Source: a virus
DNA length: 64,000 bases
Strand: one strand, 5' to 3'
Virus record (IMG/VR): IMGVR_UViG_3300032313_000668
Span: 32,001 to 96,000 of that record
The notes beneath the pieces were generated by a model that did not search any database, was not told the DNA's origin, and saw only the letters and a program-made list of their open reading frames with translations. Shown piece by piece: positions 38,948 to 57,944 of the stretch. Every line of letters starts with the position of its first letter. Position 1 is the stretch's first letter. Made by a program: the position numbers and the translations under genes.

Positions 38948-38984
38948 GAAACCCCCAAGGTAAAAAATACCAAGGGGGTTCCTC
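38948..38984. terminator. terminator between convergent early units
   Basis: AACCCCC...GGGGGTT hairpin. Confidence 0.6.
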
Positions 38985-38994
38985 ATTTGCAGGT

Positions 38995-39273
38995 CTAGTT
39001 CCCTGAAGACGCAGCCTTCCGAGCTGAGTTCTTCTTATCTACGGCATTGAATACCTCGTTTATTTCCTCAGTAGTCAGTTTGCCATCTTGTAGATACGCA
39101 CGACTTAGCCCCTCAACCACAGTCGCAACTCCTCCGATACCTGCCATCAAAACAGCCTGCCAGAGTTCGACGCCAGCGATTGCGCCAGCACCTACAACCG
39201 ACAGACCAGATGCTGCAAATACTGCCAAGACTCTATTGAGAATCTGAACAGTCTTTCCTTTGTTTATTGCCAT
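38995..39273 (-). CDS. holin-like membrane protein
   Basis: Two TM segments; DGKLT.EEINE.F tail. Confidence 0.6.
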   Translation of the reverse strand: MAINKGKTVQILNRVLAVFAASGLSVVGAGAIAGVELWQAVLMAGIGGVATVVEGLSRAYLQDGKLTTEEINEVFNAVDKKNSARKAASSGN

Positions 39274-39375
39274 AAGTGCCGTCCTTCCATGGTCGCACCT
39301 AAGCGTTGTGCAAGGACGCAACAACGCCCAGCACCTCTAATGGTAAGAGAGATACTGGGCGTTGATTGGTAAAAA

Positions 39376-39855
39376 CTAAGCGATGACTTCTACCGCAGTG
39401 CCTTTGAATAGGGCGACAATGACTGATTGGTCGGTGCAGTTATCTGCTTTGACTTTTGAGTCCTTGTGAAACTCGCAGAGGGCTTCAAGTGTTGAATCAC
39501 CAAAGGTTCCCCGCTTGTCTTCACCCGCAACAGAGAAACCAAGTTCAATAAGTCGAGACTGAACAGACGCAACTGAACGAGAGTTCTTTGCACGAGACCC
39601 ATGCTTCAGAGCTGAGAGCTGAACGAACACACCAGCACCTGCCAATTTTTTACCTTCAGATGCAACAGCAGGAGCTGACGCGGCAGCTTCTTTCTTCGCA
39701 ACAACTTCAGGTTCCTTGACTGGTTCTGGCTTTGCTTCTACAACTACCGCAGGGATAGTCTTTGGTTCTACGGCGAGCGCGACTGGCTCAGCCTTTACTT
39801 CTGGTCTGATGTCTTCCACGAATCCTACTTTCCTTCTGGGTATTGGTCGAGCCAC
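39376..39855 (-). CDS. peptidoglycan-binding domain protein
   Basis: LKHGS...VASVQSRL.ELGF...GTFG..T.EAL..F. Confidence 0.65.
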   Translation of the reverse strand: MARPIPRRKVGFVEDIRPEVKAEPVALAVEPKTIPAVVVEAKPEPVKEPEVVAKKEAAASAPAVASEGKKLAGAGVFVQLSALKHGSRAKNSRSVASVQSRLIELGFSVAGEDKRGTFGDSTLEALCEFHKDSKVKADNCTDQSVIVALFKGTAVEVIA

Positions 39856-40445
39856 TTGTAGTAAGAGCCAACCGTTCCACCATTGTAAGCGTTAGGGCCT
39901 ATACCCCATGCTCCAAAATCCTTACCACCATTTGACATGTGATAAGCAATCTCCGCATTGAGAACGGGGTTCCAGAGGTCAGAGTTCTGCTCCAAATCAA
40001 ACTTCTCACGGCGGTCTTCTCCAAGCCCACCAATCATGTTGATTTGGAATAGCCCGTATGAGTTGTCGCCTGTGTTTGAGTTGCCATTATGGGACTTAGG
40101 GCGTCCTGTGGACTCCTTCATCGCAATAGCCCAAGCAGACCTGAGAGCACTGCCCTCAAACCCAACGAGGCTCAGCAGTTCCTTCAGCTCAAGAGGGGTA
40201 AGTTGTTCTCTCTGATTTGCATACTTCTCGAGGGTTCGTGATGGCTTTTGCTGTCTAGCGAGTAAGTTCTCCATCTTTTTTACCTCAGCGATGGGGGAGA
40301 TACTGACCGCAGCAACTTGGTTCTTTGCTTCGAGTAGTTCTTCTGATGCTTGTGCATGTGCAACAGCAACAGTTGTAGTGCTAGCGAGCAGGAACACAGC
40401 AACCATAAGGATTACTGCATCTGTTTTTACTGTAAATGATTTCAT
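39825..40445 (-). CDS. exported lytic transglycosylase / lysozyme-like protein
   Basis: Signal/TM N-terminus; IAMKES.G and SYGLFQIN motifs. Confidence 0.85.
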   Translation of the reverse strand: MKSFTVKTDAVILMVAVFLLASTTTVAVAHAQASEELLEAKNQVAAVSISPIAEVKKMENLLARQQKPSRTLEKYANQREQLTPLELKELLSLVGFEGSALRSAWAIAMKESTGRPKSHNGNSNTGDNSYGLFQINMIGGLGEDRREKFDLEQNSDLWNPVLNAEIAYHMSNGGKDFGAWGIGPNAYNGGTVGSYYKWLDQYPEGK

Positions 40446-40569
40446 CTCGGTGCTCCTTCTTTAGGGGATAGGGCAGATTGCAGAATTACGCAACCATTGG
40501 GGCTACCGAAAGCCCACATGTCAATTTGTCTAATGCGTCGCTCATGTATAAACCTTACCAGAGGGTCAA

Positions 40570-40614
40570 AGAGACCCCCAGACCTGCTAAGCGTAGGTCT
40601 AAGGGTTCTTTTTT
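40570..40614. terminator. terminator hairpin
   Basis: ACCC..AGACCT...AGGTCT..GGGT with flanking A/T runs. Confidence 0.6.
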
Positions 40615-40619
40615 GTGAC

Positions 40620-41228
40620 TTATTTCACAAACCCAAATGCCCTTCGGCAGTCAGGTCCAAGCATGAGTTCCCGCGAGCGCGGGTCTGTCAGGTCTGCACC
40701 ACACTTGCCACAGCACTTGTAATGTTCAGCAAACATGCGTGCGTATTTGTAAGGGTCTTTCTGGACTATCCGCACAAACGCGAGGGCATCCTCAACGTCA
40801 GGTCGTACACGAGTGAACGCTCCAACTGAACCAAACAACTTGTTCATTTGCAGACGCTTCATGTATTCTTTCACCTCAAGAAATACTAGGTCGCCATGCA
40901 CAGGCTTCTTCATAAAGTCAAGCATCAACTCCGAAACAGGGATTGCATACTTGCTTTTAGGGATTGTCTGAAGTGCCTCATTTAGTTCCGCAAATAGACG
41001 CTGACGAGCTTCCTGCTCAGGGGTTAGCCCAGCAGGAGACTTTTTTACCTCGACAGCATTAGGGAACCCCAGGAACATCGAGATGTATCCTGATGCCTGC
41101 TTCTTGCTCAGAGATGCCCTCTGCTCAAGAAACACATTGAGAATAACCGCAGGGATTTCTCTTTGAACCATAAGGTCGTCAAGAAACTTCACCTGCTTCT
41201 CAGATGCAACTTCTAATACTTGTGTCAT
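40620..41228 (-). CDS. DUF6011-like zinc-finger protein
   Basis: ASEKQ N-terminus; CGKCGADLTDP.S...GPDC. Confidence 0.7.
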   Translation of the reverse strand: MTQVLEVASEKQVKFLDDLMVQREIPAVILNVFLEQRASLSKKQASGYISMFLGFPNAVEVKKSPAGLTPEQEARQRLFAELNEALQTIPKSKYAIPVSELMLDFMKKPVHGDLVFLEVKEYMKRLQMNKLFGSVGAFTRVRPDVEDALAFVRIVQKDPYKYARMFAEHYKCCGKCGADLTDPRSRELMLGPDCRRAFGFVK

Positions 41229-41257
41229 TTTCGTCCTTCCGTAATGATGTAATACAT

Positions 41258-41286
41258 AACCTACCTGACTTTTGCAGGAAAGTCAA
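41258..41286 (-). promoter_or_regulatory. early promoter with inverted spacer motif
   Basis: TTGACT-17-TAGGTT with TTCCTGCA in the spacer. Confidence 0.6.
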
Positions 41287-41289
41287 ATA

Positions 41290-41439
41290 CTACTTTTCTC
41301 TTGATGCAAGTAGAGCAGATGCCACCGACATAAAGCCAAGTGCAACCACTAACTCGCTCTCACCTAAGACCGCATAGATGACTGAGCCCACACTAGCGAG
41401 CGCAGAGATAACCGCAGTCCATACGATTCCTTTAGACAT
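41290..41439 (-). CDS. small two-TM membrane protein
   Basis: Hydrophobic ORF coupled to the HTH gene. Confidence 0.55.
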   Translation of the reverse strand: MSKGIVWTAVISALASVGSVIYAVLGESELVVALGFMSVASALLASREK

Positions 41440-41635
41440 TTTCAACAGTCCTTTGCTTGTCTGGACGAGTCCTGCCAACCAGTCTTGCACTTGGGTCACG
41501 AAGTGTTACTCCTTTCATGTTGATTGCCTTCCTTGCTGTTCTATACGCCACACCAAGTTCAGATGCAACCGTTTCGATTGCCATGCCCTTGCTGTAGAGC
41601 TCCGCAGCTTGTTCGGCTATTCGAGTGCTCTTCAT
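41432..41635 (-). CDS. helix-turn-helix DNA-binding protein
   Basis: LYSKGMAIETVASELGVAYRTARK. Confidence 0.75.
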   Translation of the reverse strand: MKSTRIAEQAAELYSKGMAIETVASELGVAYRTARKAINMKGVTLRDPSARLVGRTRPDKQRTVENV

Positions 41636-41655
41636 TTTTTACCTTTCGTCATTGT

Positions 41656-41850
41656 TTACTTCCCAAAGATGTCTGGGAAACATTTATCCATTGTGTCAAA
41701 GCAATAGCCCTGACCCTCAACCCACCAAATACGAGTTGAAACATAATACAAACCCATAAACGCAATAACCGCAAGCACAACCGCGAGCGCGAACGCCCAG
41801 CGACGGCGCAAGATGTATTTCCTGTCCATAAGCATTATGTAGTTTTTCAT
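41656..41850 (-). CDS. small membrane protein
   Basis: YILRRR followed by TM segment and YC...C. Confidence 0.65.
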   Translation of the reverse strand: MKNYIMLMDRKYILRRRWAFALAVVLAVIAFMGLYYVSTRIWWVEGQGYCFDTMDKCFPDIFGK

Positions 41851-41888
41851 TTGTTTGTTTCCTTTCGTCATTTGTGTCTCTTGGGTCA

Positions 41889-41917
41889 ATTGTTTCAACC
41901 TTCCTGACATTTGTCAA
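41889..41917 (-). promoter_or_regulatory. early promoter with TCAGGAAG motif
   Basis: TTGACA-17-AACAAT; CGACACGCCG with GACAC 17 nt upstream. Confidence 0.7.
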
Positions 41918-41921
41918 GGAA

Positions 41922-42557
41922 TTAGTTCTTCGGCGTGTCGCTTCCGTATGAGTCGCCTTGCCAAACCTTCGGGTCTTGTTCAAGTAAGAACTTCTCAAAG
42001 GACTTGTTGCATAGTGCCCACTCGCTTCGCTTCTCACGAATAAGGTCAATGGCTTCACGAGCACCCATGCCCTCACGAATAAGAACCAATGCTGTGATGA
42101 GCCCTGAACGATTCCAACCAGCCTGACAACGAATAAGAACTCGCTTGCCACGCTTCCAATCGGCATGAGCCAATCGCACAATGTCAAACAACTCTGCGGT
42201 ATTCATCTTGTTGATGTCTGAGTCCCAAACTCCATAACGGAATTCTTTTACAAACCAATCAACAGGATTAGCGTCCGCATACATTGTGATAACGGTGTCA
42301 AAGTTCTTTGGTGTAATCATTGGAACTTTTAGCTGTCTATCAACATCAAGGTCATCTGTTCCACCTTGCCAAAGTCCATTGAGCACCTCTGACCACAATG
42401 GGTCGTAGTAGCGTCGTCCAGCCTGACCGTAGTCTGGTCTCTCCAGATTTACTAAGTCTGCTTCGTCTTCGGCATTGAGGTTCTCCCATAGAACTTGCGC
42501 TGACGCAACCTCTAGGTCTTCCCACTCTTTGTCTGTCATTTCTTTCACCTTCTTCAT
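41922..42557 (-). CDS. dual-specificity / tyrosine protein phosphatase
   Basis: VLIRCQAGWNRS (CX5R) and AIDLIREKR. Confidence 0.88.
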   Translation of the reverse strand: MKKVKEMTDKEWEDLEVASAQVLWENLNAEDEADLVNLERPDYGQAGRRYYDPLWSEVLNGLWQGGTDDLDVDRQLKVPMITPKNFDTVITMYADANPVDWFVKEFRYGVWDSDINKMNTAELFDIVRLAHADWKRGKRVLIRCQAGWNRSGLITALVLIREGMGAREAIDLIREKRSEWALCNKSFEKFLLEQDPKVWQGDSYGSDTPKN

Positions 42558-42584
42558 TTCTTTCCTTTCGTCGTTGATGTATTT

Positions 42585-42614
42585 ATTATTTCATACCTCC
42601 CTGCATTTTGTCAA
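42585..42614 (-). promoter_or_regulatory. early promoter
   Basis: TTGACA-18-AATAAT with TGCAGGGAG. Confidence 0.7.
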
Positions 42615-42812
42615 GTGCAGGTGCTTGTAGTAGCCATGCTTCTTATAGAACAAAGCACGAGCCTTCTGCGCTTTACGGCGAGCAAAGAACTTACTAACCG
42701 CACGGAACAGGAAGATGAAGTCGTCAATGCTTACTTCTGTCTTCTTTCCCCTGCCCGCCTTGCTAAGACGCTTTGCTGTTCCTACTAATGCGCTATCTGG
42801 AAATCCATACAT
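42591..42812 (-). CDS. basic hypothetical protein
   Basis: Conserved leader AACGACGAAAGGA. Confidence 0.6.
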   Translation of the reverse strand: MYGFPDSALVGTAKRLSKAGRGKKTEVSIDDFIFLFRAVSKFFARRKAQKARALFYKKHGYYKHLHLTKCREV

Positions 42813-42837
42813 TGTGTGTCCTTTCGTCGTTATAGCA

Positions 42838-42867
42838 ATAATAACAGAAAGTGCAGGAAGATGTCAA
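42838..42867 (-). promoter_or_regulatory. early promoter with inverted spacer motif
   Basis: TTGACA-18-TATTAT with CTTCCTGCA; GACAC 25 nt upstream. Confidence 0.75.
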
Positions 42868-42924
42868 GTCCATTTAGGAAAGTTATTTGGAAGTGTCGGG
42901 GGGTAGCCCCCAGACATGAACGAA

Positions 42925-43488
42925 CTACCCAGACTGGGAGATTACATAGATTGGTTCGCCAGAGGAGGGGTCTAGTCGAGTCGCAACTCCAACCGCACTC
43001 TTCACGGCGCTGCGTGCTGCGCTGATGGTGCGTTTTTTACCTTCAAGGGAGGTGTGCATTGAACCAAGAGCATAACCAGCTCCAGAACCCATTGAGTAAA
43101 TGCCTGACTCGTCTGATGCCCAGTCGTAACCACCACCAATTTCATAGATGCGTCCGTGTATAACTACCAGCACGGAGGAGTCTTGTTCGCCCTTTTCCCC
43201 GTATTGAGCATCATCAAAACATTGTTTCAGAGCAGGAACGAACTTAGAAGAGATGAACTTGTCTAACTTGACGCCATACTCTGTTGCTGTTGGGACAGGA
43301 GGCTTGAAGGTATGTGCAAGTAGATTGACCGCACGCATGTCTCCCGCAGCGCCAAAGATGTATGCGCCATTTTTTACCACCTTGCCAGCATCTTTCGGCA
43401 GCACAAAGATGCGATTGTCTTCGGTAACTCGGCTGTCGTAGCCAATCACCGCCCAACCTTCGCCCTGGATAGCTGCAATCGTGGTCAA
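42925..43488 (-). CDS. proteasome beta / HslV-like Ntn hydrolase
   Basis: TTG start giving N-terminal TT; DSR, K and GSG motifs. Confidence 0.85.
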   Translation of the reverse strand: MTTIAAIQGEGWAVIGYDSRVTEDNRIFVLPKDAGKVVKNGAYIFGAAGDMRAVNLLAHTFKPPVPTATEYGVKLDKFISSKFVPALKQCFDDAQYGEKGEQDSSVLVVIHGRIYEIGGGYDWASDESGIYSMGSGAGYALGSMHTSLEGKKRTISAARSAVKSAVGVATRLDPSSGEPIYVISQSG

Positions 43489-43546
43489 GTTATTCTCTTC
43501 TCCCTGGAGCTGCTGCAACGCAGCTTGCGTATTTTTTACCTGAGCT

Positions 43547-43798
43547 TTAGTCTTCCCACAATAACTCACGCAGCGAATCTTCATGCTTATCGGCATGGTG
43601 ATGTGCGTTGTTTTTTGCAGAGATGTCTTCCTCGTCAATGAGCCTGTCAAGAGAAAGAACCGCAACGCAGCCTTCCTCCTCGAACATCACAACAAGTTTG
43701 GTTTCCCCATCATTTGGGTCGTCAATGATTGCTGCTATGAACGGCGTGGCAGAGCCATTTTGGTGGAAGGACTTATCTACGATACTTGGTCTCAACAT
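43547..43798 (-). CDS. hypothetical protein
   Basis: HQNG...PF motif; RBS GAGG. Confidence 0.6.
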   Translation of the reverse strand: MLRPSIVDKSFHQNGSATPFIAAIIDDPNDGETKLVVMFEEEGCVAVLSLDRLIDEEDISAKNNAHHHADKHEDSLRELLWED

Positions 43799-43834
43799 AG
43801 GTCTACTTTACCTCTCCTGCTAGGAGATGATTGT

Positions 43835-43866
43835 AAAAGAAAAGCCCCTCCGAAGAGGGGCGTTTC
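43835..43866. terminator. rho-independent terminator
   Basis: GCCCCTC-CGAA-GAGGGGC with A/T tails. Confidence 0.85.
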
Positions 43867-44030
43867 TATAATAGATTTCTACAAAACACCTATCCCCCGC
43901 AGGGAGTCAAGGGATAGATGCGGTGGGAGGTAGAACCCACCTCATCACGAGAGTGCGAGACTAACTCAAGCAACTGCCGTGGAACTCTAGGATAAATGAT
44001 TTTTTACCTAGTGATTCCACCGCGAGCGCG

Positions 44031-44270
44031 TTAGTCTTCCTCTTCCTCATCGTCAATGCCTATACCAATCTCATGTGATACCGCACCAACGTCCCAGCCG
44101 TAGTATTCCTTTAGCCAAACATTTGCAAGTCTTGATGCGAAGTCGTGGTCATCTTCGCCTTCCTCCCGCAACTGCTCGTCAAGAACAACTGTGGTCATCA
44201 GGGTGAAATAGTCACCAACAAAAATAACTTCCTTCGTCAGCTCTATGTGGTCAATCTCAGGCAGCGACAT
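44031..44270 (-). CDS. acidic hypothetical protein
   Basis: RBS and operon context. Confidence 0.65.
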   Translation of the reverse strand: MSLPEIDHIELTKEVIFVGDYFTLMTTVVLDEQLREEGEDDHDFASRLANVWLKEYYGWDVGAVSHEIGIGIDDEEEED

Positions 44271-44496
44271 TTTTTACCTCATCTACTATTTCGACTAATA
44301 GTTCGGCAGCATCGCTTTGCCAACCAAACTCTCCATCTTCATACTTCACAACAACATCAGCCCACTCTTCATCTGTGATGGGAGGAACATCGTTGCCTCG
44401 GTATCCATCAACACAATCCTTGTCCCAGTAAGCCACAATGAGTTCCGCGTCATCTGGATAACTTTCTAATTGCTTCTTCAGGTCTTTGACTAACAT
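44257..44496 (-). CDS. hypothetical protein
   Basis: M.VKDL...LESYP.D N-terminus. Confidence 0.7.
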   Translation of the reverse strand: MLVKDLKKQLESYPDDAELIVAYWDKDCVDGYRGNDVPPITDEEWADVVVKYEDGEFGWQSDAAELLVEIVDEVKNVAA

Positions 44497-44498
44497 TT

Positions 44499-44639
44499 TT
44501 ACCTAGCCTCCTCTGGGCAATCTGCGTATGGGTTTTCATTTCCTTCATTGTCTTCGCATGTGCAGAAACCAAACTTCTCTACCTGTGTCTTGTGGGTCAA
44601 GTCCGCAAGGTCGCTCCAATACATAACTTCTTTGCTCAT
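44499..44639 (-). CDS. small Cys-containing protein (not in track)
   Basis: MSKEVMYWSDLADLTH...FGFCTCED...PYADC; coupled to neighbours. Confidence 0.6.
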   Translation of the reverse strand: MSKEVMYWSDLADLTHKTQVEKFGFCTCEDNEGNENPYADCPEEAR

Positions 44640-44773
44640 TACTCCTCCACCTCACAATCATGTCCAGCGTGCCACTCGCTTGCTTGCTCTTCATCGAACA
44701 TGTCGAACTTGCGTCCGCACTCGATACAGATTTGATTTGACTGCTCTAGAACAATCCGCATGATGTCTTGCAT
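44639..44773 (-). CDS. small zinc-finger protein (not in track)
   Basis: CIECGRKFDM...EW..GHDCE. Confidence 0.65.
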   Translation of the reverse strand: MQDIMRIVLEQSNQICIECGRKFDMFDEEQASEWHAGHDCEVEE

Positions 44774-44775
44774 TT

Positions 44776-45027
44776 TTACTTCTCCTGCTCTGCTAGATAC
44801 TGTGCAATTTCTTCTTGGGTTGTGCCCTGTGCTTTTTGCAAGTTAGCCCATAGATTTCCAGCGGTGGCATACATGTCCATAAGTGAGAACAATTTTTCCA
44901 TGCTGTAATCTTTGTGGTTGCGGTGCTTCTCAATGTATTCGGTAAGCATTTGCATAACCGCACTTACTCCCTGTGTGGCAAGGTGTAATTCAACCCTGTC
45001 TAATTCAACTACTATCTTTTCGTCCAT
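44776..45027 (-). CDS. hypothetical protein
   Basis: Conserved leader and promoter. Confidence 0.65.
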   Translation of the reverse strand: MDEKIVVELDRVELHLATQGVSAVMQMLTEYIEKHRNHKDYSMEKLFSLMDMYATAGNLWANLQKAQGTTQEEIAQYLAEQEK

Positions 45028-45064
45028 TTTCTTCTCCCTGTCGTCGTTTTTACTTCTTGCTACT

Positions 45065-45092
45065 ATTCTACGACTTACCTGCATTTTGTCAA
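45065..45092 (-). promoter_or_regulatory. early promoter
   Basis: TTGACA-16-TAGAAT with TGCAGGTAAG; GACAC 17 nt upstream. Confidence 0.75.
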
Positions 45093-45121
45093 GCTTTTGT
45101 TTTATCGGCGTGTCGTAAAGA

Positions 45122-45158
45122 GAAACCCCCCGACTCTGGGGGAGAGTCGAGGGGCTTC
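45122..45158 (-). terminator. rho-independent terminator
   Basis: CCCC.CGACTCT...AGAGTCG.GGGG. Confidence 0.7.
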
Positions 45159-45177
45159 GGTGTGAAATAAGGGGGGC

Positions 45178-45522
45178 TTACTTCACAACCAGAACCACAT
45201 AATCTGTGGCGGTCTGAGTGGCTTCATAAGCCTCGGGGAAAGCAAGTGCTAACTTCTTTGAGTCCACGCCTGTGCGTGAACGCTTCTGGGCTTCGATACG
45301 GATTTTTCCGTCTACGATTCCAACTTCGGCGTCTCCAAGAACTTCCTTGATTTGTGCTTCAAGTTCTTTCTTGGTCTTTTCCAATTCGGTAATCATTGTG
45401 CGTGTTGCCACGAACTGGTCAATTACTGCTTGGGTGTCTGCGTTGAGTTCTACTGATGTGTTCTCAACCTTTGCGATGTTTACTACTTTTACTACTTCTA
45501 CTGCTACTGATGCCTTAGACAT
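45178..45522 (-). CDS. coiled-coil protein resembling the C-terminal part of YqaJ-family proteins
   Basis: ELEAQIKE.LGDAE.G...DSKKL...PEAY. Confidence 0.6.
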   Translation of the reverse strand: MSKASVAVEVVKVVNIAKVENTSVELNADTQAVIDQFVATRTMITELEKTKKELEAQIKEVLGDAEVGIVDGKIRIEAQKRSRTGVDSKKLALAFPEAYEATQTATDYVVLVVK

Positions 45523-51361: not shown

Positions 51362-51452
51362 TTGAATCTCCTTCCGTGTCTAGTGTATCTGTTTTTTACC
51401 TGCGCTCGCCATAAGAAAGGGGGCTCTCGCCCCCTCCCTCACGCCGTAAGTT

Positions 51453-52157
51453 TTACTCTTGCCCGACAAGCATCTCAGAGATTTCTTCTATCTCCGATAC
51501 TGCTTTCTCGGTTGCCTTCTTGTTATTAGGGCAATCGTCATACCAATCTTCTTCATCCCAGCCCTGAGCACAAGCACATCCGTCCTCGTTGTCTCGGCTT
51601 ACATAGTCTGCGTGGCTTTGTGGAATGTCCCACTCGTCGCTTACCGATAACTCGCCGTCCGTGCCCTCGAACTCCACGCCCCAGCCTTGTTCCTCTTCGC
51701 AGTGGAACTTGAAGGTAAGGGTCGGGAACTGTTCAACCATTGCTCGGTATGCTCCCTCCGCAGGAGACCAAGCCGTGCTGAAACTGTATTGAAGTTCAGT
51801 AGGACTGTCCGTGCCGAGGTCGGGGTCGGAAGCATCCCACTTCGTGCCCCAGTTGCGAATGTTCCAGTCATACCAGCCGTCGGACTTGAACTGCATAGAG
51901 AGAGCCATCTTCTCTTCCATAGATAGTTCGTCGTATCCCTCGGGTTTGTAATCGCTCGCCCCAAAATACAGTTGCTTGTTTTCTGGCTCTATGAAGTTCC
52001 AGAACTGTATGACGCCTTCGTGTGTTCCTTCTACTTGTTGATTTGTTTTGTAATCTTCGTAGTAGGTGGTGTAAGGCTTTGATGCAAGTTCCTTGAACTC
52101 CGCAATCGCTTTTTCATCACCAGTTATGGTGAGGTTGTTATAGACCCAATTTGGCAT
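51453..52157 (-). CDS. DUF1281/YubB-like ferredoxin-fold protein
   Basis: MPNW..N, WYDWN..NWGTKWD and FSTAWSP. Confidence 0.85.
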   Translation of the reverse strand: MPNWVYNNLTITGDEKAIAEFKELASKPYTTYYEDYKTNQQVEGTHEGVIQFWNFIEPENKQLYFGASDYKPEGYDELSMEEKMALSMQFKSDGWYDWNIRNWGTKWDASDPDLGTDSPTELQYSFSTAWSPAEGAYRAMVEQFPTLTFKFHCEEEQGWGVEFEGTDGELSVSDEWDIPQSHADYVSRDNEDGCACAQGWDEEDWYDDCPNNKKATEKAVSEIEEISEMLVGQE

Positions 52158-52210
52158 TTTATTTCCTTTCGTCGTTTTGGTTAGTAAGGGAGGAAGCCCC
52201 TACGAGTTCT

Positions 52211-52239
52211 ATCATAAAGGCTTCCTCATCTGTTGTCAA
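52211..52239 (-). promoter_or_regulatory. early promoter inside a GAGGAAGCC inverted repeat
   Basis: TTGACA-17-TATGAT. Confidence 0.75.
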
Positions 52240-52242
52240 GTA

Positions 52243-52398
52243 TTACGCCTCGAAGTCCCAGCGAGCGCCGACTTCATAATCCTTGAAGTCATCCGCAATC
52301 CAGTCGTCAAGTTGTTTGATGGCATCCATACCATCCTCCGCCTCGACCTCAACTTCATAATTTTTAGTGAGTGTTGCTCTTACAGTTATCTTCGTCAT
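52243..52398 (-). CDS. small hypothetical protein (not in track)
   Basis: MTKITVRATLTKNYEVEVEAED...; RBS AAGGAG. Confidence 0.65.
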   Translation of the reverse strand: MTKITVRATLTKNYEVEVEAEDGMDAIKQLDDWIADDFKDYEVGARWDFEA

Positions 52399-52400
52399 TT

Positions 52401-52601
52401 TTACTCCTTTGCCAATGCAACTGTGTTTAGTAATTCAAGTGCTGGAAGATACTCTGTTTCGTAATCTTCTTCACGCCACTCTTGTTTTTCTTCGTCATAG
52501 AGTGAGCCTTCGTGAAACTTTGCTGTGAAGGTGTCGTCGTCAATGTGGACTGACTTGTTGTCAATGTCCACTGCAATCACAAAATGAACTGTGCGTGCCA
52601 T
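52401..52601 (-). CDS. hypothetical protein
   Basis: Conserved leader; resembles ORF 37182 (HFVIAVD / HLVVAYN). Confidence 0.65.
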   Translation of the reverse strand: MARTVHFVIAVDIDNKSVHIDDDTFTAKFHEGSLYDEEKQEWREEDYETEYLPALELLNTVALAKE

Positions 52602-52636
52602 CTTGTTTCCTTTCGTCGTTTGTTGATGGTGAACTT

Positions 52637-52665
52637 ATTATTACACCTTCCTGCACACTTGTCAA
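52637..52665 (-). promoter_or_regulatory. early promoter
   Basis: TTGACA-17-AATAAT with TGCAGGAAGG; GACAC 26 nt upstream. Confidence 0.75.
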
Positions 52666-52776
52666 GTTTTGTTGGGAAAAAGTTTTTCGGCGTGTCGTTC
52701 AGTTGACGAGGGCCCTGGAATTAAAGAAGGAAAGTTATTGTGAAGTTAGTGCAGGAAACTTGCTGACATCAACGAA

Positions 52777-52950
52777 CTACTCCTCTGGAGTTTGTTCCTC
52801 AATCGCTGTGCGATTTTTTACCTCACGAGTTCGCATCCGCTTTGTGCGTCGGTCTTCAAATACCTGGGACTTCTGATTCTGAACATAGTTTCCAGGCACG
52901 CCTTTAGTTATCCGCTTGATGCGCTCGCGTTCCCGCTTCTTCTCGTCCAT
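52777..52950 (-). CDS. small basic protein (not in track)
   Basis: MDEKKRERERIKR...FEDRRTKRMRTR; apparently leaderless. Confidence 0.55.
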   Translation of the reverse strand: MDEKKRERERIKRITKGVPGNYVQNQKSQVFEDRRTKRMRTREVKNRTAIEEQTPEE

Positions 52951-53036
52951 CTTTAAATTTTACCCCGTCAAAGAAAAACGACCCGCCAAGTCCCGTCGCT
53001 GCGGGTGCTTATTGGCGAGCCGTTAAATTTTTTTAC

Positions 53037-53162
53037 TTACTCTGAATCCCTGGCCGTATCAGCTTTCTCGAGCATTGCATCCGTGAACTCTTCTGCGGTT
53101 GGTTCCCAGTCTTCGGGCTTATCGCGAGCCGTGCTCTCAAGCCACTCTACGTATCCGCGCAT
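53037..53162 (-). CDS. small acidic protein (not in track)
   Basis: TAATG coupling; RBS GGAGG. Confidence 0.5.
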   Translation of the reverse strand: MRGYVEWLESTARDKPEDWEPTAEEFTDAMLEKADTARDSE

Positions 53163-53359
53163 TACGCCACCTCCTCTAGAAACTCTACCTTTACCGCATC
53201 TCCCAGTTCGTTCATTTTTACCAAGCCGTAGATGTCTTCTATAAAAGTCTCACGGGCATAGTCCGCAAACTCTTTGTCCGTCATGGTTGTATCCATGCCG
53301 TCTTCTAGAAACGCTTTGTCGAATTCAAAAGTGATGTGCGCTTTTACATACCTGCCCAT
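53162..53359 (-). CDS. hypothetical protein
   Basis: TAATG coupling. Confidence 0.65.
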   Translation of the reverse strand: MGRYVKAHITFEFDKAFLEDGMDTTMTDKEFADYARETFIEDIYGLVKMNELGDAVKVEFLEEVA

Positions 53360-53538
53360 TACTTCACCAACTCAAGCCGTTGACCCAACCCGAGTCCTAG
53401 CTTGCCCGTGCCGTTAAGTTCAAAACAACTTTGGCACATGTAGGCCCAAGGGCCCATTACAGTGGCGGCATCATAGCGAGCCGTTTCACCGCAATTGAAA
53501 TCGCACTGTGGCATTACTGCTACGCGAGCCGTTTCCAT
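53359..53538 (-). CDS. small zinc-finger protein (not in track)
   Basis: CDF.C...YDA.T..GPWA.MC..CF...GLG.GQ. Confidence 0.75.
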   Translation of the reverse strand: METARVAVMPQCDFNCGETARYDAATVMGPWAYMCQSCFELNGTGKLGLGLGQRLELVK

Positions 53539-53984
53539 TATGCGCTCACCTCTTCTGGTGTCATTGGGTTCTCAGCGGTCAGGCCCGTTGCGTTGCGGTA
53601 GAGGCGTGCACCGTCAGACCACTCTGACCAGTATCCGTCCGAGCCGATATCCACTGCATCACCGTAAACATCTTTGAGGTGGATAAGGCAAGCCGTAACT
53701 ACTGGGTCATACGATTTGCGTGCCGTCTTGCAGAAATTGAATCCGCTAGCGTCCACGGCCCAATAAAAGGTTTCGTGAGAATCCGCGCCGTATCCATTGA
53801 ATGAAACTAATGAATCGGAAATCTCCCACCCACCTAGCTTCTCGCCCATGCCGTCAGCGATTTGAATGTTGTCGTGTTGTGTTGCGTATTCAATAATCGT
53901 GCGAGCGCCGCGAGCAAACATTTCGAATCGCAGTGCATCATCGCGAGTAGTGCCTACCTTTGAGAAATAGTGTGTGTATCCCAC
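53538..53984 (-). CDS. conserved phage hypothetical protein
   Basis: MGYTHY...HETF...FCKTARK.YD..V. Confidence 0.8.
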   Translation of the reverse strand: MGYTHYFSKVGTTRDDALRFEMFARGARTIIEYATQHDNIQIADGMGEKLGGWEISDSLVSFNGYGADSHETFYWAVDASGFNFCKTARKSYDPVVTACLIHLKDVYGDAVDIGSDGYWSEWSDGARLYRNATGLTAENPMTPEEVSA

Positions 53985-54052
53985 TTGGGTGTCTCCTTCA
54001 TCGTTTTTGTTATTAGGGGGTTCCCTAATATTTTCTATTATAGAGTGTTGAC

Positions 54053-54286
54053 TTAATACTTGTCAAGTGCTTTCTGCATTTTTATCAAAGATTTATCAAA
54101 ATCTCTTTGAACATTTCTATACTTCCTTTGATACTTCCTGCCCTCAATTGAAGGTGGGATGTAGGTGCTTCTTCTTATCTGTCGTCTATAGCTTGGCTTA
54201 AAGTGGATTACTGCCCAAACAAATAAAGTCAGACCACTACCAATTAACATTCCAGCAATTAATAGAATGAGTTCTCTTGTTTCCAT
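54053..54286 (-). CDS. small membrane protein
   Basis: N-terminal TM segment and basic tail. Confidence 0.6.
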   Translation of the reverse strand: METRELILLIAGMLIGSGLTLFVWAVIHFKPSYRRQIRRSTYIPPSIEGRKYQRKYRNVQRDFDKSLIKMQKALDKY

Positions 54287-54289
54287 TTT

Positions 54290-54538
54290 TTATCCTTTTG
54301 TCATTTCTGCTGTTTCTATAAACCCAGCGCCGTTTAGTTCAGGGTCGCGGGCAGGTATTAAGACGTGACCATTATCAAAAATTAAAACAATCGCGCCTTC
54401 TGAATCGTATTCGTCCCAGCCGAAAGCTTCAAGTTCTGATTCTGTCATAGGGCGTACCGAAACTAACTTCGCTCCAATAGCGCCTTTGCACTGGTCCGCA
54501 TAGAACTGTTTCACTTCGTCTTTTGTTTTTATGTTCAT
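54290..54538 (-). CDS. hypothetical protein
   Basis: VRPMT..E...GW...RDPE.NG.G; own TTGACA/TATAAT promoter. Confidence 0.7.
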   Translation of the reverse strand: MNIKTKDEVKQFYADQCKGAIGAKLVSVRPMTESELEAFGWDEYDSEGAIVLIFDNGHVLIPARDPELNGAGFIETAEMTKG

Positions 54539-54580
54539 CTTTCCTCCTAAATCTATTATAGAACAACAGATTTACATTTG

Positions 54581-54895
54581 TCAACTATTTGATAAAACTT
54601 CTTTTGTGATGAGAATAAAGGCAACCACTGACATTATTAAACCAACAACCCAATAAAAACTATCTTGAGCAATGAAGATTCCCAGGGATGTAAATGTGCT
54701 GGTTATGCCTAGGGCCCAACCCCACTCAACACCAAGACGCTTCCATAGGAGAAGCCACATCGATAGTGGCCATATAAGAATCTGCAGCATTGCCCAAACG
54801 GGCAGCAAGCCGCTAGGCGTGAAGTCGTCATCGTATCCGTTGTTAGCGTCAGCTCGAGCCGCGGCTACGTTCCAAAGTATAAATAGTTCAATCAT
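54581..54895 (-). CDS. multi-TM membrane protein
   Basis: Three hydrophobic segments; leaderless promoter at 54902-54930. Confidence 0.65.
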   Translation of the reverse strand: MIELFILWNVAAARADANNGYDDDFTPSGLLPVWAMLQILIWPLSMWLLLWKRLGVEWGWALGITSTFTSLGIFIAQDSFYWVVGLIMSVVAFILITKEVLSNS

Positions 54896-54914
54896 ATGTT
54901 TATCATAGAGCGAA

Positions 54915-55560
54915 CGGGTACCGTTGTCAACCTGGTTAAATTTAAGTTACCAGCTGATAGCTCGCCGTTTTAAAAAGTTATTTGTTTCTCGGGCGGGCCG
55001 CGGGTTAGTTTCTCGGCCGCTCGGTTGAGAAACCTAATCCTACCCACCGTGTCAAGTCCTGTCAAGCAGCAAACCGTTTCATAGGTTGTTCAACTTGGGC
55101 GAGCCGCTGTGGGCTACATCCAAACAACTCACCGTCAACCAGGCAGCTGTACCTTCAGAGCTCGCCGTTAAAGTTATTCGGTTCTGCTTACCTGGCCGCC
55201 AACTTCAGAACCCATTCTGAACTCTCACCGTTAATACTTGGCGCAGCTATACCAGGCCGCTTTAAATTTTTTACCTCCCTGATTTTTTACCGTCAGCAGC
55301 TGAGCTGCGGCCGCCAGGTCAACATCGCAATAACTCTCCGTTATACGCGGGCCGCCTGGTTTTTCCGCCCGTCCGTTCCAGATGGTGAGCTCGCCGCCAG
55401 GTAAAAGTTATTGGGATGTTTGGTAACCAAGGTACCCCGAGCTCGCCGTCCCATACAAACTTAGTTCTAAGGTTGTACGGCAAGTTCTATGATGGGAACC
55501 TTAAGCTCCAGTCCGCTGCCGTTAAAGTTATTTGAATGTTCCGTCAGCAATGTCGGTGGT
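54915..55560. repeat. non-coding block of dispersed short repeats
   Basis: AGCTCGCCG x4, AAGTTATT x4, GGCCGC, CCWGG and CAGCTG repeated; CCG roughly every 30 nt. Confidence 0.7.
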
Positions 55561-55578
55561 TACCGTTATGCTGGATGT

Positions 55579-55749
55579 ATGAATATCTATGCTCATCCCG
55601 TTGGGGCAGACCCGTTCCACCTACACGAAGTCCTTATTGCGCTCGCCGCTTTTGGAACAACGGGTATCGCTTTCCTGTGGTGGGGATTCAAAGACCAGCT
55701 CAAGCGGGCCGCTGCCTGGTTTAGGAAGTTGTTTCGTTCTCGCCGTTAG
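55579..55749 (+). CDS. small membrane protein
   Basis: MNIYAHPVG...TM...basic tail; TATGCT just upstream. Confidence 0.5.
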   Translation: MNIYAHPVGADPFHLHEVLIALAAFGTTGIAFLWWGFKDQLKRAAAWFRKLFRSRR

Positions 55750-55855
55750 CTGCAGCTGCGATGTCAATGTCCGTTGAGCATTTAGGGCATCGGTCATGCA
55801 GGCCGAGTTCATAAACCTCGCCGCACCAGAAACAATCCTTTAATACTTTTCCCAT
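55721..55855 (-). CDS. small zinc-ribbon protein (not in track)
   Basis: CFWCGE...CPKC. Confidence 0.5.
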   Translation of the reverse strand: MGKVLKDCFWCGEVYELGLHDRCPKCSTDIDIAAAANGENETTS

Positions 55856-55976
55856 TAACTTGGTAACTCATCCATTCTGTCTACCCAGTCCGTTGGGTCT
55901 TCCTCTTGGTCACACTTGCCGTTTGATTTTGGCACTTGACAAACCGTTAATTACTAGTTAGCATTGGAAATGCTTA

Positions 55977-56162
55977 CTAGTTATTAACTTGCTCCGTTGC
56001 CTCTAGTTGAAACCTCTTCAGGCCGTTAAGGAGATTAGCCGCCTCATTTGCCCTCGCCGTTACGCGGATGTGTTCATCGCGAGTTCGGCACTCAATAATG
56101 TCTGATTGAAGGCGGGCCGCAAGCTGCGCCGCCTCTTCGATAAGTTGTTCTACCGTCATCAC
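55977..56162 (-). CDS. helical-hairpin hypothetical protein
   Basis: Coupled to the upstream gene. Confidence 0.6.
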   Translation of the reverse strand: MMTVEQLIEEAAQLAARLQSDIIECRTRDEHIRVTARANEAANLLNGLKRFQLEATEQVNN

Positions 56163-57157
56163 AGCTCGTCGAGCTCCTCTGCTGTTATGGTCTCTGACTC
56201 GACGGTTGTCTCATCCGTATTTTTTACCTCGGCGCTCGCCGTGGTTTCCTGAGGTAAAATTTCTATATCTTCGACTTCAGCATCGATAACATCAGCATCA
56301 TTAACATCTACCGTTCCTCCCAGGAGGATGGCGGTATTGGCGGCTCCTTGCCGTAGGCGGTTGAGGCGGTCAAGCACAATCTCTGCTGGGGAGCGACCGT
56401 CAGTCACCTGGACGTCCACCCCAATATCCACGCCGCCTCGCACGCCTGCGCGGTCAAGGATTTCGGCTGCGGCTTTAAGGCGCACGGGTTCGGAGACAGC
56501 CGTCTCCATAAGTTCTTCCATCACATCTACCGCATAAGGTGCGGATTGCATTAGCTTCTTGCGAGCACGTTCGACATCCTCGCCAGGCTTCCGTTGACTG
56601 CGGAGGTGGACGCGACACAAGCCGTCATCTTTCAGACGCCCGCTAGACCAGAGCATGCAGCGCAAGCCGTCGCCCTTAATGATTCGACAGCGGTGGGGCA
56701 GAGCGGCAGGCGCTCGCTTTGCTGATTTCGGGCCGCCGTCTGCCTGTTCCTTCTGCCAAGTCTTAGTAGCACCGACAACCCAGGGAGGTGTAATACGACA
56801 CGCCGATTCATCAACTATCAGGTCCAGGCCCGTTAAGTAGTCGGAGTTATTGTCAAGTGGGTTTGAGAGCAGCGGCTTCTTTTCCGCCAGGGAAAGGACA
56901 CGCCGTTCTTTCATTTGTTCTTGAGAGCGGGCAGCAATAAGCCCCGTTGGTTGACCCGTCTGTGAATAGACAGGGTCCCAGTTCATTAACGCGCCGCGAA
57001 GTATTTGACGGTTCTCGTAGGTGTCCTCGACAACGCCGCGTTCCATCTCAACCATGCCGATTGCCGTCAGGTCAGGACGGAAATCTAAGGGAGTATCAAC
57101 TGCGGGTTCAAGGTCTTCCTCTTCCTTCGGTTCCTCGAAGGGAAGTAGGTCAGACAT
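56159..57157 (-). CDS. probable terminase small subunit
   Basis: C...G.RC...G.C..H Zn knuckle, VRLKAAAEILDRAG helix and acidic VIDAEV tail. Confidence 0.65.
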   Translation of the reverse strand: MSDLLPFEEPKEEEDLEPAVDTPLDFRPDLTAIGMVEMERGVVEDTYENRQILRGALMNWDPVYSQTGQPTGLIAARSQEQMKERRVLSLAEKKPLLSNPLDNNSDYLTGLDLIVDESACRITPPWVVGATKTWQKEQADGGPKSAKRAPAALPHRCRIIKGDGLRCMLWSSGRLKDDGLCRVHLRSQRKPGEDVERARKKLMQSAPYAVDVMEELMETAVSEPVRLKAAAEILDRAGVRGGVDIGVDVQVTDGRSPAEIVLDRLNRLRQGAANTAILLGGTVDVNDADVIDAEVEDIEILPQETTASAEVKNTDETTVESETITAEELDEL

Positions 57158-57167
57158 TTTTTACTTC

Positions 57168-57362
57168 TTAAGCTTCACGTGCAGATGCGAGGTGGTCGTT
57201 CAATTCTTGCCGCTTTGTTTGGAGGACAGCGCTGATAGCTTCCTTCTCAACCTTTGTGCGGTATTCCTGGTTTGAGAGCATATCAACGTAGCTCTGAATC
57301 TCAGCGCGAAGTTCTAGTTCGCGGTCTGCGTGGGCTCTTGCCTCTTCGATGCTTAGTGCCAT
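57168..57362 (-). CDS. helical hypothetical protein
   Basis: RBS AGGAG. Confidence 0.6.
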   Translation of the reverse strand: MALSIEEARAHADRELELRAEIQSYVDMLSNQEYRTKVEKEAISAVLQTKRQELNDHLASAREA

Positions 57363-57433
57363 CTTTTTCTCCTATGTCGGTGAGGTAAAAAATATGGAGA
57401 GCGGGGCCCGCGAAGGCCCCACTTCCCAATAAC

Positions 57434-57739
57434 TTATTTCTTTGTTGTGGTCTTCTTGGCAGCTGGCTTCTTCGCGCTCGCGGCAGCTGTGGATAACTTC
57501 TTGCCAACCTCAGCGGCAGCTACCTCTGCGACACGCCCGAAAGCAGGGTCTTTAGAGTTGAGCCAACGAAGGGCGGTTGGGATTAGGGAGGCCCATAGGG
57601 CGTTGGCTACAAGGAGCCACTCGGCACCTGTGAAGTCAAGGGGTGAAGCTGTTGCTGACATCTCCATAACAATGAAGATGGCTCCGACTACCTGACCAAG
57701 CAGGTTGCGGAGGTAGGACTCAATTGCGAGTTTGTTCAT
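57434..57739 (-). CDS. holin-like membrane protein
   Basis: Two TM segments; LRWLN.KDPAFG; K/A-rich tail. Confidence 0.7.
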   Translation of the reverse strand: MNKLAIESYLRNLLGQVVGAIFIVMEMSATASPLDFTGAEWLLVANALWASLIPTALRWLNSKDPAFGRVAEVAAAEVGKKLSTAAASAKKPAAKKTTTKK

Positions 57740-57944
57740 TTGGTTTTCGTCCTTCTTTCGAGGGCTAGATAATTTTTACCTAGTACCACTAGAGTAAGGC
57801 ATCTTCGGACGAATTTTTTGGAAAAGTTGCGTGATATTTACCCCCTTTTATAAACAACCAATTTTGAAATGGTCAATTTCCCTGTGGAAATAAGGGGTTT
57901 TGGATTTCGGACGGGACATCAAATTGATGAACAAAAAAGTGTTT

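Follow-up and report, generated by a model that had tools for sequence, protein, structure and literature searches.

A 64,000-nucleotide stretch of viral DNA, bases 32001-96000 of the 118,251-bp IMG/VR virus record IMGVR_UViG_3300032313_000668 (here called the window), carries an oriented octamer, GGTAAAAA (TTTTTACC when read on the plus strand), that has been imposed on the sequence at the nucleotide level by selection. The word is sense-oriented, confined to one block of genes and kept by relatives of this phage as lineage-specific variants; copies are over-represented around translation starts and in the spaces between genes, but some occur inside genes too. The reading that we prefer, and hold tentatively, is that selection maintains RRTAAAAA as a cis signal particular to the lineage, which labels a single class of accessory transcripts and is most likely read as unstructured single-stranded RNA within the mRNA by a sequence-specific, probably phage-encoded factor.

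The record (completeness estimate 90%) is linear and has no end repeats. Gene models come from our own map of open reading frames (ORFs) in the window, in which several small ORFs are uncertain. Genes occupy the minus strand at 38.6-61.4 kb, as do the structural genes at 1-36.6 kb. Copies of the word are also cited by their minus-strand 5' (higher) coordinate, such that 57773..57780 is copy 57780, and relatives are given locus (L) or genome (G) numbers where they must be told apart.

The window contains 24 exact copies, 21 with TTTTTACC on the plus strand and three reversed, and all of them lie within 38959-57780. None of 100 dinucleotide-preserving shuffles reaches this number (mean 2.44, largest 7). 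Because the genes of the block lie on the minus strand, the 21 plus-strand copies of TTTTTACC are sense copies of GGTAAAAA. An earlier note on this DNA had described about 21 oriented copies, three in the opposite orientation (38959, 39368 and 57384) and none in the structural region; each of these observations is confirmed, with coordinates right to 1-2 nucleotides and no copy at positions 1-38958. Within the block, (G)AGGTAAAAAA has a density of about one per kilobase and is nearly always on the coding strand. The largest copy-free gap there, 4.6 kb over the VWA/AAA genes, is not significant (p = 0.08).

GGTAAAAA is the most frequent octamer of the genome, and its distribution is regional. 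The whole record has 25 copies, a single one of which, at genome position 108243, falls beyond the block. Outside the block both the word and its heptamer core occur at or under third-order Markov expectation, and neither the structural nor the replication genes use the word. In the 47.8-kb structural block there are 0 copies against 1.4 expected, and GTAAAAA is found 3 times against 6.3 expected. The earlier note had held that equal enrichment in late genes would undo its proposal, and these late or structural genes prove to have none. Aligned copies give the consensus gAGGTAAAAAAt, with no conservation further out in the flanks. The only single changes tolerated are purine-for-purine substitutions at positions 1-2, giving RRTAAAAA, and the variants share the strand preference of the exact word (sense:antisense 8:0 for AGTAAAAA and 3:0 for GATAAAAA).

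Copies inside genes cannot be attributed to the encoded peptides. Synonymous-codon shuffles within the 36 minus-strand ORFs of the block (15,096 nucleotides) yield a mean of 1.32 copies (standard deviation 1.03; maximum 5 in 1000 shuffles) compared with 12 observed, and shuffling codon order in the same ORFs yields a mean of 0.39. Enrichment thus survives the codon-shuffle control that the earlier note had named as its own refutation. As that note had also stated, more than one reading frame is used: 10 of the in-ORF copies are read as xxG GTA AAA AAx (EVKN/EVKK and similar) and two as GGT AAA AAx (GKK). The third frame of the word holds a TAA, which serves as the stop of an upstream ORF at 44503, 57165, 52405 and 44780. 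All nine X-V-K-[K/N] peptides are spelled xxG GTA AAA AAx, although GTA makes up 25% of valine codons and AAA 40% of lysine codons; of the nine, the QVKN at 43540 is probably located ahead of the real start of an HslV-like gene. Two of the four G-K-[K/N] peptides are spelled GGT AAA AAx.

Two explanations for the in-frame copies were tried and rejected. A protein motif or paralogy is incompatible with the unrelated proteins that carry the word, with the use of word codons in nine of nine VK[KN] peptides and with the occurrence of an identical peptide without the word in another lineage. Programmed frameshifting at A_AAA_AAN would suit the frame of 10 of the 12 in-ORF copies, yet no alternative frame remains open past the copies except for one of 81 codons at 43378; the bias of 10 to 2 therefore does not point to frameshifting.

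A search with the 603-amino-acid VWA-like protein of the block recovered 12 IMG/VR loci. In the five closest (64-90% identity in this marker), GGTAAAAA occurs 13-32 times in the sense and 1-5 times in the antisense orientation within 16-22 kb, and in the other seven loci it occurs 0-2 times. Counted over whole records, the sense:antisense ratio is 21:4 here and 19:2, 20:3, 35:7, 28:3 and 21:5 in relatives, in which the word is likewise confined to a block just upstream of, and co-oriented with, the structural genes. Enrichment is lacking in the relative G006 (100% complete, 130.6 kb), which has 6 and 4 copies on its two strands, and the word is absent from the named relative DSL-LC01 and from the equivalent region of Gordonia phage GodonK. 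The form of the word changes with lineage: gAGGTAAAAAAt in the window, L009 and L010, GGGTAAAAAt in L011 and L012, A[A/G]GTAAAAAAt in L013 and the 17-mer tTAGCAAAAAGTAAAAA in L014, a sixth relative. Throughout these lineages GTAAAAA is invariant, and complementarity to the anti-Shine-Dalgarno sequence decays (A[A/G]GT in L013, AAAAAGT in L014). Such variants suggest a reader that co-evolves with the word. Extended -10 promoter words, CCTGATATAAT and TCTAAAGATGTTATAAT, are repeated instead in L015-L018, L020 and DSL-LC01.

Many copies are islands of identity amid flanks that are 66-85% identical. Those at gene starts are stable, with 41643 and 46728 kept over L009-L013. Inside genes, the earlier note had proposed a check of synonymous positions, and the outcome differs among copies. 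Copy 43041 (E-G-K-K-R in the HslV-like gene) is GGT AAA AAA in five lineages while neighbouring codons switch synonymously (GAA/GAG, CGC/AGA). Copy 43378 is kept in four lineages, and G005 spells the same KVVKNG as AAA GTA GTT AAG AAT GGA. Other in-gene copies turn over: 41049, 46589, 39654, 56228 and 40284 are found in just one to three lineages. The codon shuffles, the sense orientation in relatives and the conservation at synonymous sites together support the view of the earlier note that this is a directional signal and not a protein constraint.

The placement of the 21 sense copies relative to genes was assessed with the start of the HslV-like gene corrected to TTG 43488. Four run straight into an ATG (41643, 44278, 44503 and 46728), which bears out the report that copies adjoin start codons; six lie 39-77 nucleotides upstream of a start that has its own ribosome-binding site (RBS) (57780, 56228, 53222, 51400, 46797 and 43540); three are in noncoding DNA (55291, 55275 and 44008); and eight are inside ORFs. 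An ATG likewise follows directly on four of the eight AGTAAAAA variants. Although ORFs make up 77% of the block, 10 of the 21 copies are not wholly inside one and 11 are (p = 0.013); the density of copies between genes is double that within genes. At seven loci, 68 of 195 GTAAAAA sites run into an ATG and 60 begin an ORF with 30 or more amino acids, compared with 41 and 30 of 241 other A-runs of at least five. These counts are descriptive, given that L011 nearly duplicates L012 and that orthologous sites do not count as independent. About one third of copies are fused to an ATG, about one third are 39-77 nucleotides upstream of a start or intergenic, and about one third are in genes, with lineage turnover.

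The fusion to start codons could mean that the word is simply a translation-initiation cassette without a dedicated reader, in which GAGGT and an A-rich spacer form the favoured ribosome-binding region of this lineage and have been spread by recombination between cassettes. Copies away from starts would then be ribosome-loading or mRNA-stabilizing sites, in the manner of the STAB-SD sites of Bacillus. GAGGT does fit the anti-Shine-Dalgarno complement, being complementary to this sequence at the 16S 3' end, and 31-35% of copies are fused to ATG at constant spacing. These phages have a second stereotyped leader, ACGACGAAAGGA, and A-runs in general often precede ATG in them. However, structural and replication genes lack the word, which is therefore not the general best RBS, and complementarity to the anti-Shine-Dalgarno sequence is lost in L013 and L014 while GTAAAAA is invariant. 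Two thirds of copies have no start codon, and internal copies are maintained at synonymous sites. We regard this explanation as quite unlikely.

Several features favor a site that acts at the level of mRNA. The word is found wherever the transcript runs, in leaders, start regions and coding sequence, and its density is highest in the places where RNA sites are most effective, namely the ribosome-binding region and RNA that is 5'-proximal or intergenic. Some copies fall within predicted 5' leaders, a short way past sigma-70-like promoters (45054, 57780 and, in L013, 12439). It has no partner element or symmetry, and the RegB/S1 sites and RegA operators of phage T4 provide a well-studied functional analogue. 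If the preferred reading is correct, then the reader would bind or cut these sites and thereby set the translation or mRNA lifetime, or both, of the gene class. The third of copies that is fused to ATG might control initiation directly, and copies in 5' untranslated regions and coding sequence could add further binding or cleavage sites. Among the proposals of the earlier note, an RNA-binding or cleavage tag on early mRNAs is, in our reading, the best fit to the distribution (5' untranslated regions, starts, coding sequence, sense strand, one gene class); no RegA or RegB homologue is encoded. The description of the block as early is itself an assumption, its content being sigma-70-like promoters together with accessory and lysis-type genes.

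A candidate reader was sought among the proteins of the phage. Pfam and PHROG searches with 10+10+4+10+10+10 proteins returned nothing informative beyond helix-turn-helix (HTH), HslV-like, phosphatase, AAA_5/VWA, SLT and PG-binding matches. A comparison of gene content identified five ORFs specific to motif-bearing relatives (39376-39855, 44031-44270, 44776-45084, 46256-46720 and 51453-52157), two of which have Pfam matches (DUF1281_C and PG_binding_1). In an Atlas look-up the 154-amino-acid protein matched nothing and the 234-amino-acid protein matched DUF1281_C clusters only.

A number of observations weigh against an RNA-level reader. Neither RegB (PF10715) nor RegA (PF01818) has a homologue in this genome at E ≤ 10, and the five ORFs specific to motif-bearing relatives belong to no recognizable nucleic acid-binding or nuclease family. 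Operators of the RegA type are at start regions only, and two thirds of the copies here are elsewhere. Other A-runs also run into ATG (17%), which makes the link to ATG partly general to A-runs in these phages. Accessibility was rejected as a distinguishing trait, since the predicted unpaired fraction of the word, 0.67, is like that of other A-rich octamers (0.64; p = 0.18). The reversed copies, about 10-15% of the total, are not noise: those of relatives bear lineage-specific flanks, and 57384 and 38959 are positionally conserved. An RNA-level signal would require antisense or convergent transcripts to account for them, which is plausible for 38959. No RNA runs are among the 20 listed holders of this stretch, all of which are lake-water DNA. 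Finally, the sense bias, the restriction to one block and the positions in leaders are also compatible with a DNA site that is read along the direction of transcription.

Copy 38959 bears out the remark of the earlier note that a copy is in a hairpin, since it occupies the apical part of a strong one at 38935-38995 (-25.2 kcal/mol, z = -4.5). This hairpin lies between a converging plus-strand island and the minus-strand block and is likely a bidirectional terminator. Strong hairpins are also found ahead of 51400 and between 46797 and 46728. An adjacent hairpin or antisense terminator was nevertheless rejected as a general component of the signal: a few copies do abut hairpins, but across six loci the flanks fold on average no better than controls, with no adjacent structure found.

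The block contains about 14 near-consensus sigma-70-like promoters (CTTGACA-N17-TAnAAT) on the same strand as the word, at window positions 41889-55065. Their spacer is partly conserved as AA[A/G]TGCAGG[A/G]AGGT, and they are often followed by the stereotyped leader before ATG. Others are on the plus strand at 37029, 37111 and 38398. Positions orthologous to these promoters have the extended -10 words CCTGATATAAT and TCTAAAGATGTTATAAT in motif-free relatives. In motif-free relatives (L021, which is DSL-LC01, and G006/L018/L020), C/A-rich and G-poor leaders precede the RBS, for example CCCACACCCAAACGACGAAAGGA and CAACCACAACAACCAACCACAACC. The word is not itself a sigma-70 promoter, as no -35 or -10 element is conserved beside it and the sigma-70-like promoters of the block are separate sites. 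A MotA-box-like element was also rejected, there being no conserved -10 downstream.

It is rather unlikely, in our estimation, that the word is instead the promoter or initiator of a phage gene class, recognized by a host RNA polymerase that an unrecognized phage factor redirects, or by an undetected phage polymerase, with initiation within the A-run or immediately past it. A model for such a short phage promoter is the late promoter of T4, TATAAATA, of 8 bp. ATG-fused copies would then produce leaderless or very short-leader mRNAs, and those 39-77 nucleotides upstream of starts would produce leadered ones, a possibility that draws on the six copies whose downstream starts have their own RBS. 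Past terminator-like hairpins, copies 51400 and 46728 are followed by no sigma-70-like promoter before the next gene, and genes with the word alternate in modules with sigma-70 genes (11 runs compared with 17.8 expected; permutation p = 0.011). The 17-nucleotide variant of L014 has no Shine-Dalgarno complement, yet 4 of its 21 copies run into ATG, and the lineage variants and the limit to one block would suit a temporal promoter class.

Other evidence is difficult to reconcile with a promoter. The word has no conserved -35, -10 or other partner, whatever the distance considered. No match to Sigma70_r2 or r4 was found in the phage proteins, a search that would miss divergent factors, and the search for a T7-like RNA polymerase (PF00940), which would also miss them, was uninformative because its control matched nowhere either. 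Copies 43041, 43378, 41049 and 46589 lie 330-600 nucleotides before the next gene in conserved ORFs, sometimes with a sigma-70-like promoter in between, and internal copies turn over between lineages. Where copies directly follow sigma-70-like promoters, a second promoter would be redundant. We also considered whether motif-free relatives have a promoter in place of the word, and this idea was rejected. The DSL-LC01 orthologue of gene 51361 does have an extended -10 promoter at the position of the word, but it is alone in this among the five motif-type genes whose orthologues could be compared in such relatives, the other four positions showing either a hairpin or a simple RBS leader.

A DNA site resembling the L5-type stoperators, another suggestion of the earlier note, would require a phage protein that binds the duplex word and blocks or modulates RNA polymerase in one direction, silencing the block in lysogeny or late infection. 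The word is asymmetric, is oriented with transcription and overlaps gene starts and stops, and the reversed copies at the left border (38959 and 39368) are sense for transcription that converges from the plus-strand island. Its sequence drifts between lineages, as stoperators do together with their repressors. A conserved 67-amino-acid HTH protein is encoded in the block right behind copy 41643. A resolvase/serine-recombinase N-terminal domain (E = 3e-11) at genome positions 118047-118247 (locus L052, outside the window) is cut by the contig end and leaves room for a temperate life style. Orientation and overlap with gene starts agree with the stoperator suggestion, and other features do not. 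The conserved core is just 8-11 nucleotides, with no inverted repeat, half-site or dyad; it occupies one 19-kb block and not every place where silencing is needed; and neither a repressor nor an operator-at-promoter arrangement was found, with no copy overlapping a -35 or -10 hexamer of the sigma-70-like promoters. The HTH protein is also present in the motif-free relatives G006 (52%) and DSL-LC01 (46%), no tyrosine integrase was found in the phage, and a roadblock has no need of the fixed fusion between A-run and ATG in a third of copies. A stoperator-like site is accordingly one that we judge unlikely.

On a broader scale, the word may be one case of a widespread and undescribed layer of control, a conjecture that we consider possible but somewhat doubtful. 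Large phages of many families would mark an accessory or early block with a lineage-specific sense-strand "address word" despite its cost in codons and amino acids, and a small, fast-evolving phage factor would recognize it in the transcript or on the non-template strand and so set when a whole gene class is translated, processed or degraded. Here the address word would have merged with the ribosome-binding region, and one factor could switch a third of the block genes directly. To our knowledge, almost nothing is known about how the large "dark" accessory blocks of big phages are controlled, above all in uncultured lake actinophages. This phage offers a clean case, in which a short word is kept against codon usage, belongs to one gene class, changes with lineage and alternates with sigma-70-type cassettes. 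If its reader is found, this would open the temporal or post-transcriptional regulation of these phages to study and would help to explain the start-associated sequences of mycobacteriophages. The word also predicts which genes form one regulatory class and helps to correct start calls.

The HslV-like peptidase gene illustrates the latter use. Its ORF, 42925-43665, is over-extended, and the family match and an N-terminal Thr-Thr point to a start at TTG 43488 (M-T-T-I-A), which is preceded by GGGAGAAGAG. In the gap before this gene is a 71-amino-acid plus-strand ORF (43608-43823) with tblastn matches in six relatives (48-79%), which ends beside a hairpin (43844-43861) that resembles a bidirectional terminator. 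This ORF may be a genuine gene on the antisense strand, or its conservation may reflect the other strand. Other products of the block are a dual-specificity phosphatase, an AAA_5 ATPase and its VWA-like partner, the HTH protein, an SLT lysozyme-like protein, a PG-binding protein and many ORFans. Among the small proteins are a basic one of 73 amino acids (42591-42812) and one of 59 amino acids with four cysteines (53359-53538). A noncoding stretch of about 650 bp at 54915-55560 contains two copies of the word, a pair of sigma-70-like promoters and four iterons that resemble AATAACTTT.A..GGCGAGCT, and it could be an origin or another regulatory hub. In L011-L014, AATAACTT/AACAACTT also ranks with the commonest octamers. 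A second gap of 650 bp (60070-60715) has an A-rich tandem, CTGAAAAACTAAAAAACTAAAAACTGAAAAACTAAAAAAATAAATG, on the minus strand at 60580-60615 and adjoins the divergent switch to plus-strand genes. All copies and variants are collected in the table.

The nearest named record to the 603-amino-acid protein is the lake metagenome-assembled "Actinomycetia phage DSL-LC01" (48% identity), and Microbacterium and Gordonia phages are more distant matches. The accessible part of the DSL-LC01 paper ties that phage to Godonkavirus and predicts an actinomycete host. The stretch is present as contigs in 20 lake-water DNA runs. A megablast search against phages gave no match for the block and a sole match of 145 bp in the capsid region. 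No published description of the GGTAAAAA word was found in the literature, a search that did not cover the supplementary files of the cited papers.

Table. The motif block, exact copies of the word and AGTAAAAA variants, in window coordinates; copies are sense unless listed as reversed.
Feature	Position	Strand	Context
Motif block	39647..57780	-	19-kb run of small accessory genes; all 21 sense copies, interleaved with ~14 sigma-70-like promoters
Copy	57773..57780	-	5' untranslated region; ATG 57739, with an RBS of its own, is 41 nt downstream; kept in L010, L011, L012
Copy	56221..56228	-	3' end of 332-aa ORF (EVKN), 66 nt upstream of start 56162; G002 only
Copy	55284..55291	-	Noncoding block 54915-55560; first of a pair 16 nt apart
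Copy	55268..55275	-	Noncoding block 54915-55560; second of the pair
Copy	53215..53222	-	60 nt upstream of ATG 53162 (RBS GGAGGT)
Copy	52815..52822	-	In 57-aa ORF, a doubtful gene (EVKN); L010 counterpart AAGTAAAAAA
Copy	51393..51400	-	~10 nt past terminator-like hairpin, 39 nt upstream of ATG 51361; kept in L009, L010, L011
Copy	51346..51353	-	Codons 3-6 of 89-aa ORF (TEVKN)
Copy	46790..46797	-	Directly 5' of strong hairpin after 603-aa gene
Copy	46721..46728	-	Into ATG 46720 (154-aa ORF); kept in L009-L013, variant in L014
Copy	46582..46589	-	In 154-aa ORF (EVKK); kept in G002, G001; lost in G003, G004, G005
Copy	44496..44503	-	Into ATG 44496; TAA is stop of upstream frame
Copy	44271..44278	-	Into ATG 44270; overlapping upstream ORF reads EVKN
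Copy	44001..44008	-	Intergenic, 23 nt past stop at 44031; kept in L009-L012
Copy	43533..43540	-	52 nt upstream of probable true start TTG 43488 (MTTIA...) of HslV-like gene
Copy	43371..43378	-	In HslV-like gene (VVKN); same peptide without the word in G005; VVRN in G003
Copy	43034..43041	-	In HslV-like gene (GKK); kept in five lineages, flanking synonymous sites change
Copy	41636..41643	-	Into ATG 41635 (67-aa HTH protein); kept in L009-L013
Copy	41042..41049	-	In DUF6011/phrog_636 gene (EVKK); kept in G002 only
Copy	40277..40284	-	In SLT lysozyme-like ORF (EVKK), in-frame ATG 10 nt downstream; this genome only
Copy	39647..39654	-	In PG-binding ORF (GKK); kept in G002 and G001
Reversed copy	38959..38966	+	Hairpin apex after last plus-strand gene, sense for that transcript; kept in L009, L010
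Reversed copy	39368..39375	+	Between two minus-strand ORFs
Reversed copy	57384..57391	+	After stop 57434, before start 57362; L010, L011, L012 keep it, with lineage-specific flanks
Variant AGTAAAAA	57158..57165	-	Into ATG 57157 (332-aa ORF); TAA is stop of upstream ORF
Variant AGTAAAAA	53030..53037	-	At stop of ORF 53037-53162
Variant AGTAAAAA	52398..52405	-	Into ATG 52398; TAA is stop of upstream ORF
Variant AGTAAAAA	51089..51096	-	End of 89-aa ORF
Variant AGTAAAAA	49855..49862	-	Into ATG 49855 (AAA_5 ATPase)
Variant AGTAAAAA	45047..45054	-	11 nt past -10 hexamer of promoter-like site 45092; in predicted 5' leader, before RBS
Variant AGTAAAAA	44773..44780	-	TAA is stop of ORF 44776-45084; runs into ATG
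Variant AGTAAAAA	40424..40431	-	Inside 5' end of SLT ORF

The numbers and orientation of the copies resemble those of Chi sites in some phages. According to the accessible text of one source (PMC12315714), phage LLS has 23 Chi sites, of which 20 are actively oriented and half fall within 22% of the genome, and phage MD8 has a ratio of 32:0. Terminally clustered Chi sites in LLS, MD8 and P1 share with the word the status of most frequent octamer, co-orientation (20:3 in LLS, 21:3 here), regional distribution and occurrence inside genes. The earlier note had listed a translocation cue like Chi or the FtsK-orienting polar sequences (KOPS). In such a case co-oriented host sites clustered near a packaging end would tame the host helicase-nuclease, as in LLS and MD8, and the writing of the word into genes by synonymous choice also agrees with this idea. 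Chi, however, is an abundant word of the host's own, and GGTAAAAA is never abundant in 401 sampled Actinomycetia genomes, a sample outside which the actual host may fall. The maximum is 49+42 copies in 2.4 Mb; each strand of a genome of 1.3-1.5 Mb holds 10-29 copies, and a reversed control word occurs at an equal or higher frequency. In addition, the word changes between close relatives, up to a 17-mer in one, reaches double its in-gene density between genes and is linked to gene starts, a third of copies being fused to ATG. A translocation cue is thus disfavored and, in our view, very improbable.

Cluster A stoperators, which are bound by the immunity repressor (gp71 in L5), are 13-bp sites in both genome arms of temperate phages. 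Like the word described here, they are asymmetric, numerous, oriented with transcription and often at gene boundaries, and they drift between lineages. They differ in extending about 13 bp and being spread over the transcribed arms, compared with a core of 8-11 nucleotides, 24 of 25 genomic copies in a 19-kb block and no repressor found here. The accessible text of PMC3203893 contrasts these stoperators with the start-associated sequences (SAS) of Cluster K.

Phage T4 provides the nearest parallels in architecture. The accessible text of two sources (PMC1702504, PMC3014915) gives the RegB/S1 site as GG*AGRAYARAA, 11 nucleotides long and found in start regions, intergenic sequence and some coding sequence of early, not late, mRNAs, and it describes RegA operators as A+U-rich with a 5' poly(A) tract and an AUG. 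RegB/S1 sites and the word are both unstructured, with a purine-rich, Shine-Dalgarno-like 5' part and an A-rich 3' part, and both belong to one mRNA class; RegA operators share with it the poly(A) tract that adjoins AUG. The pattern of constraint is different, as GGA is invariant and the A-rich part degenerate in RegB sites, whereas UAAAAA is invariant and the 5' purines vary here. There is also no RegA or RegB homologue encoded, and the host is presumably an actinobacterium and not E. coli. By this analogy the word may work like the RegA and RegB sites of T4 while being a member of neither class, the resemblance being one of architecture only.

The closest described feature in actinophages is the SAS. 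In the accessible text of Pope et al. (2011; PMC3203893) and of a 188-genome survey (PMC12699233), Cluster K SAS are copies of the 13-mer GGGATAGGAGCCC with up to two mismatches that almost without exception precede a start by 3-7 bp; 6 of 125 are in ORFs. Both SAS and the word are short, asymmetric elements of actinobacteriophages that are present in 11-19 or more copies, nearly all in one orientation and only in the nonstructural part of the genome; the 21:3 ratio and the absence from structural genes agree with this pattern. Both have a Shine-Dalgarno-like core, often take in the stop of the gene before them and pair preferentially with ATG, and neither has an assigned function or reader. 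The consensus sequences are distinct, GGGATAGGAGCCC as opposed to gAGGTAAAAAAt, and the word does not conform to the 13-bp consensus. It has no inverted repeat like that of the extended SAS (ESAS), and the host group and phage family differ. Nearly all SAS are at starts, but 60-68 of 195 sites of the word touch a start and 11 of the 21 window copies are wholly inside ORFs. Because SAS are start-bound in nearly all copies and the word is not, we set it apart from SAS and place it among the sense-strand regulatory repeats of phages.

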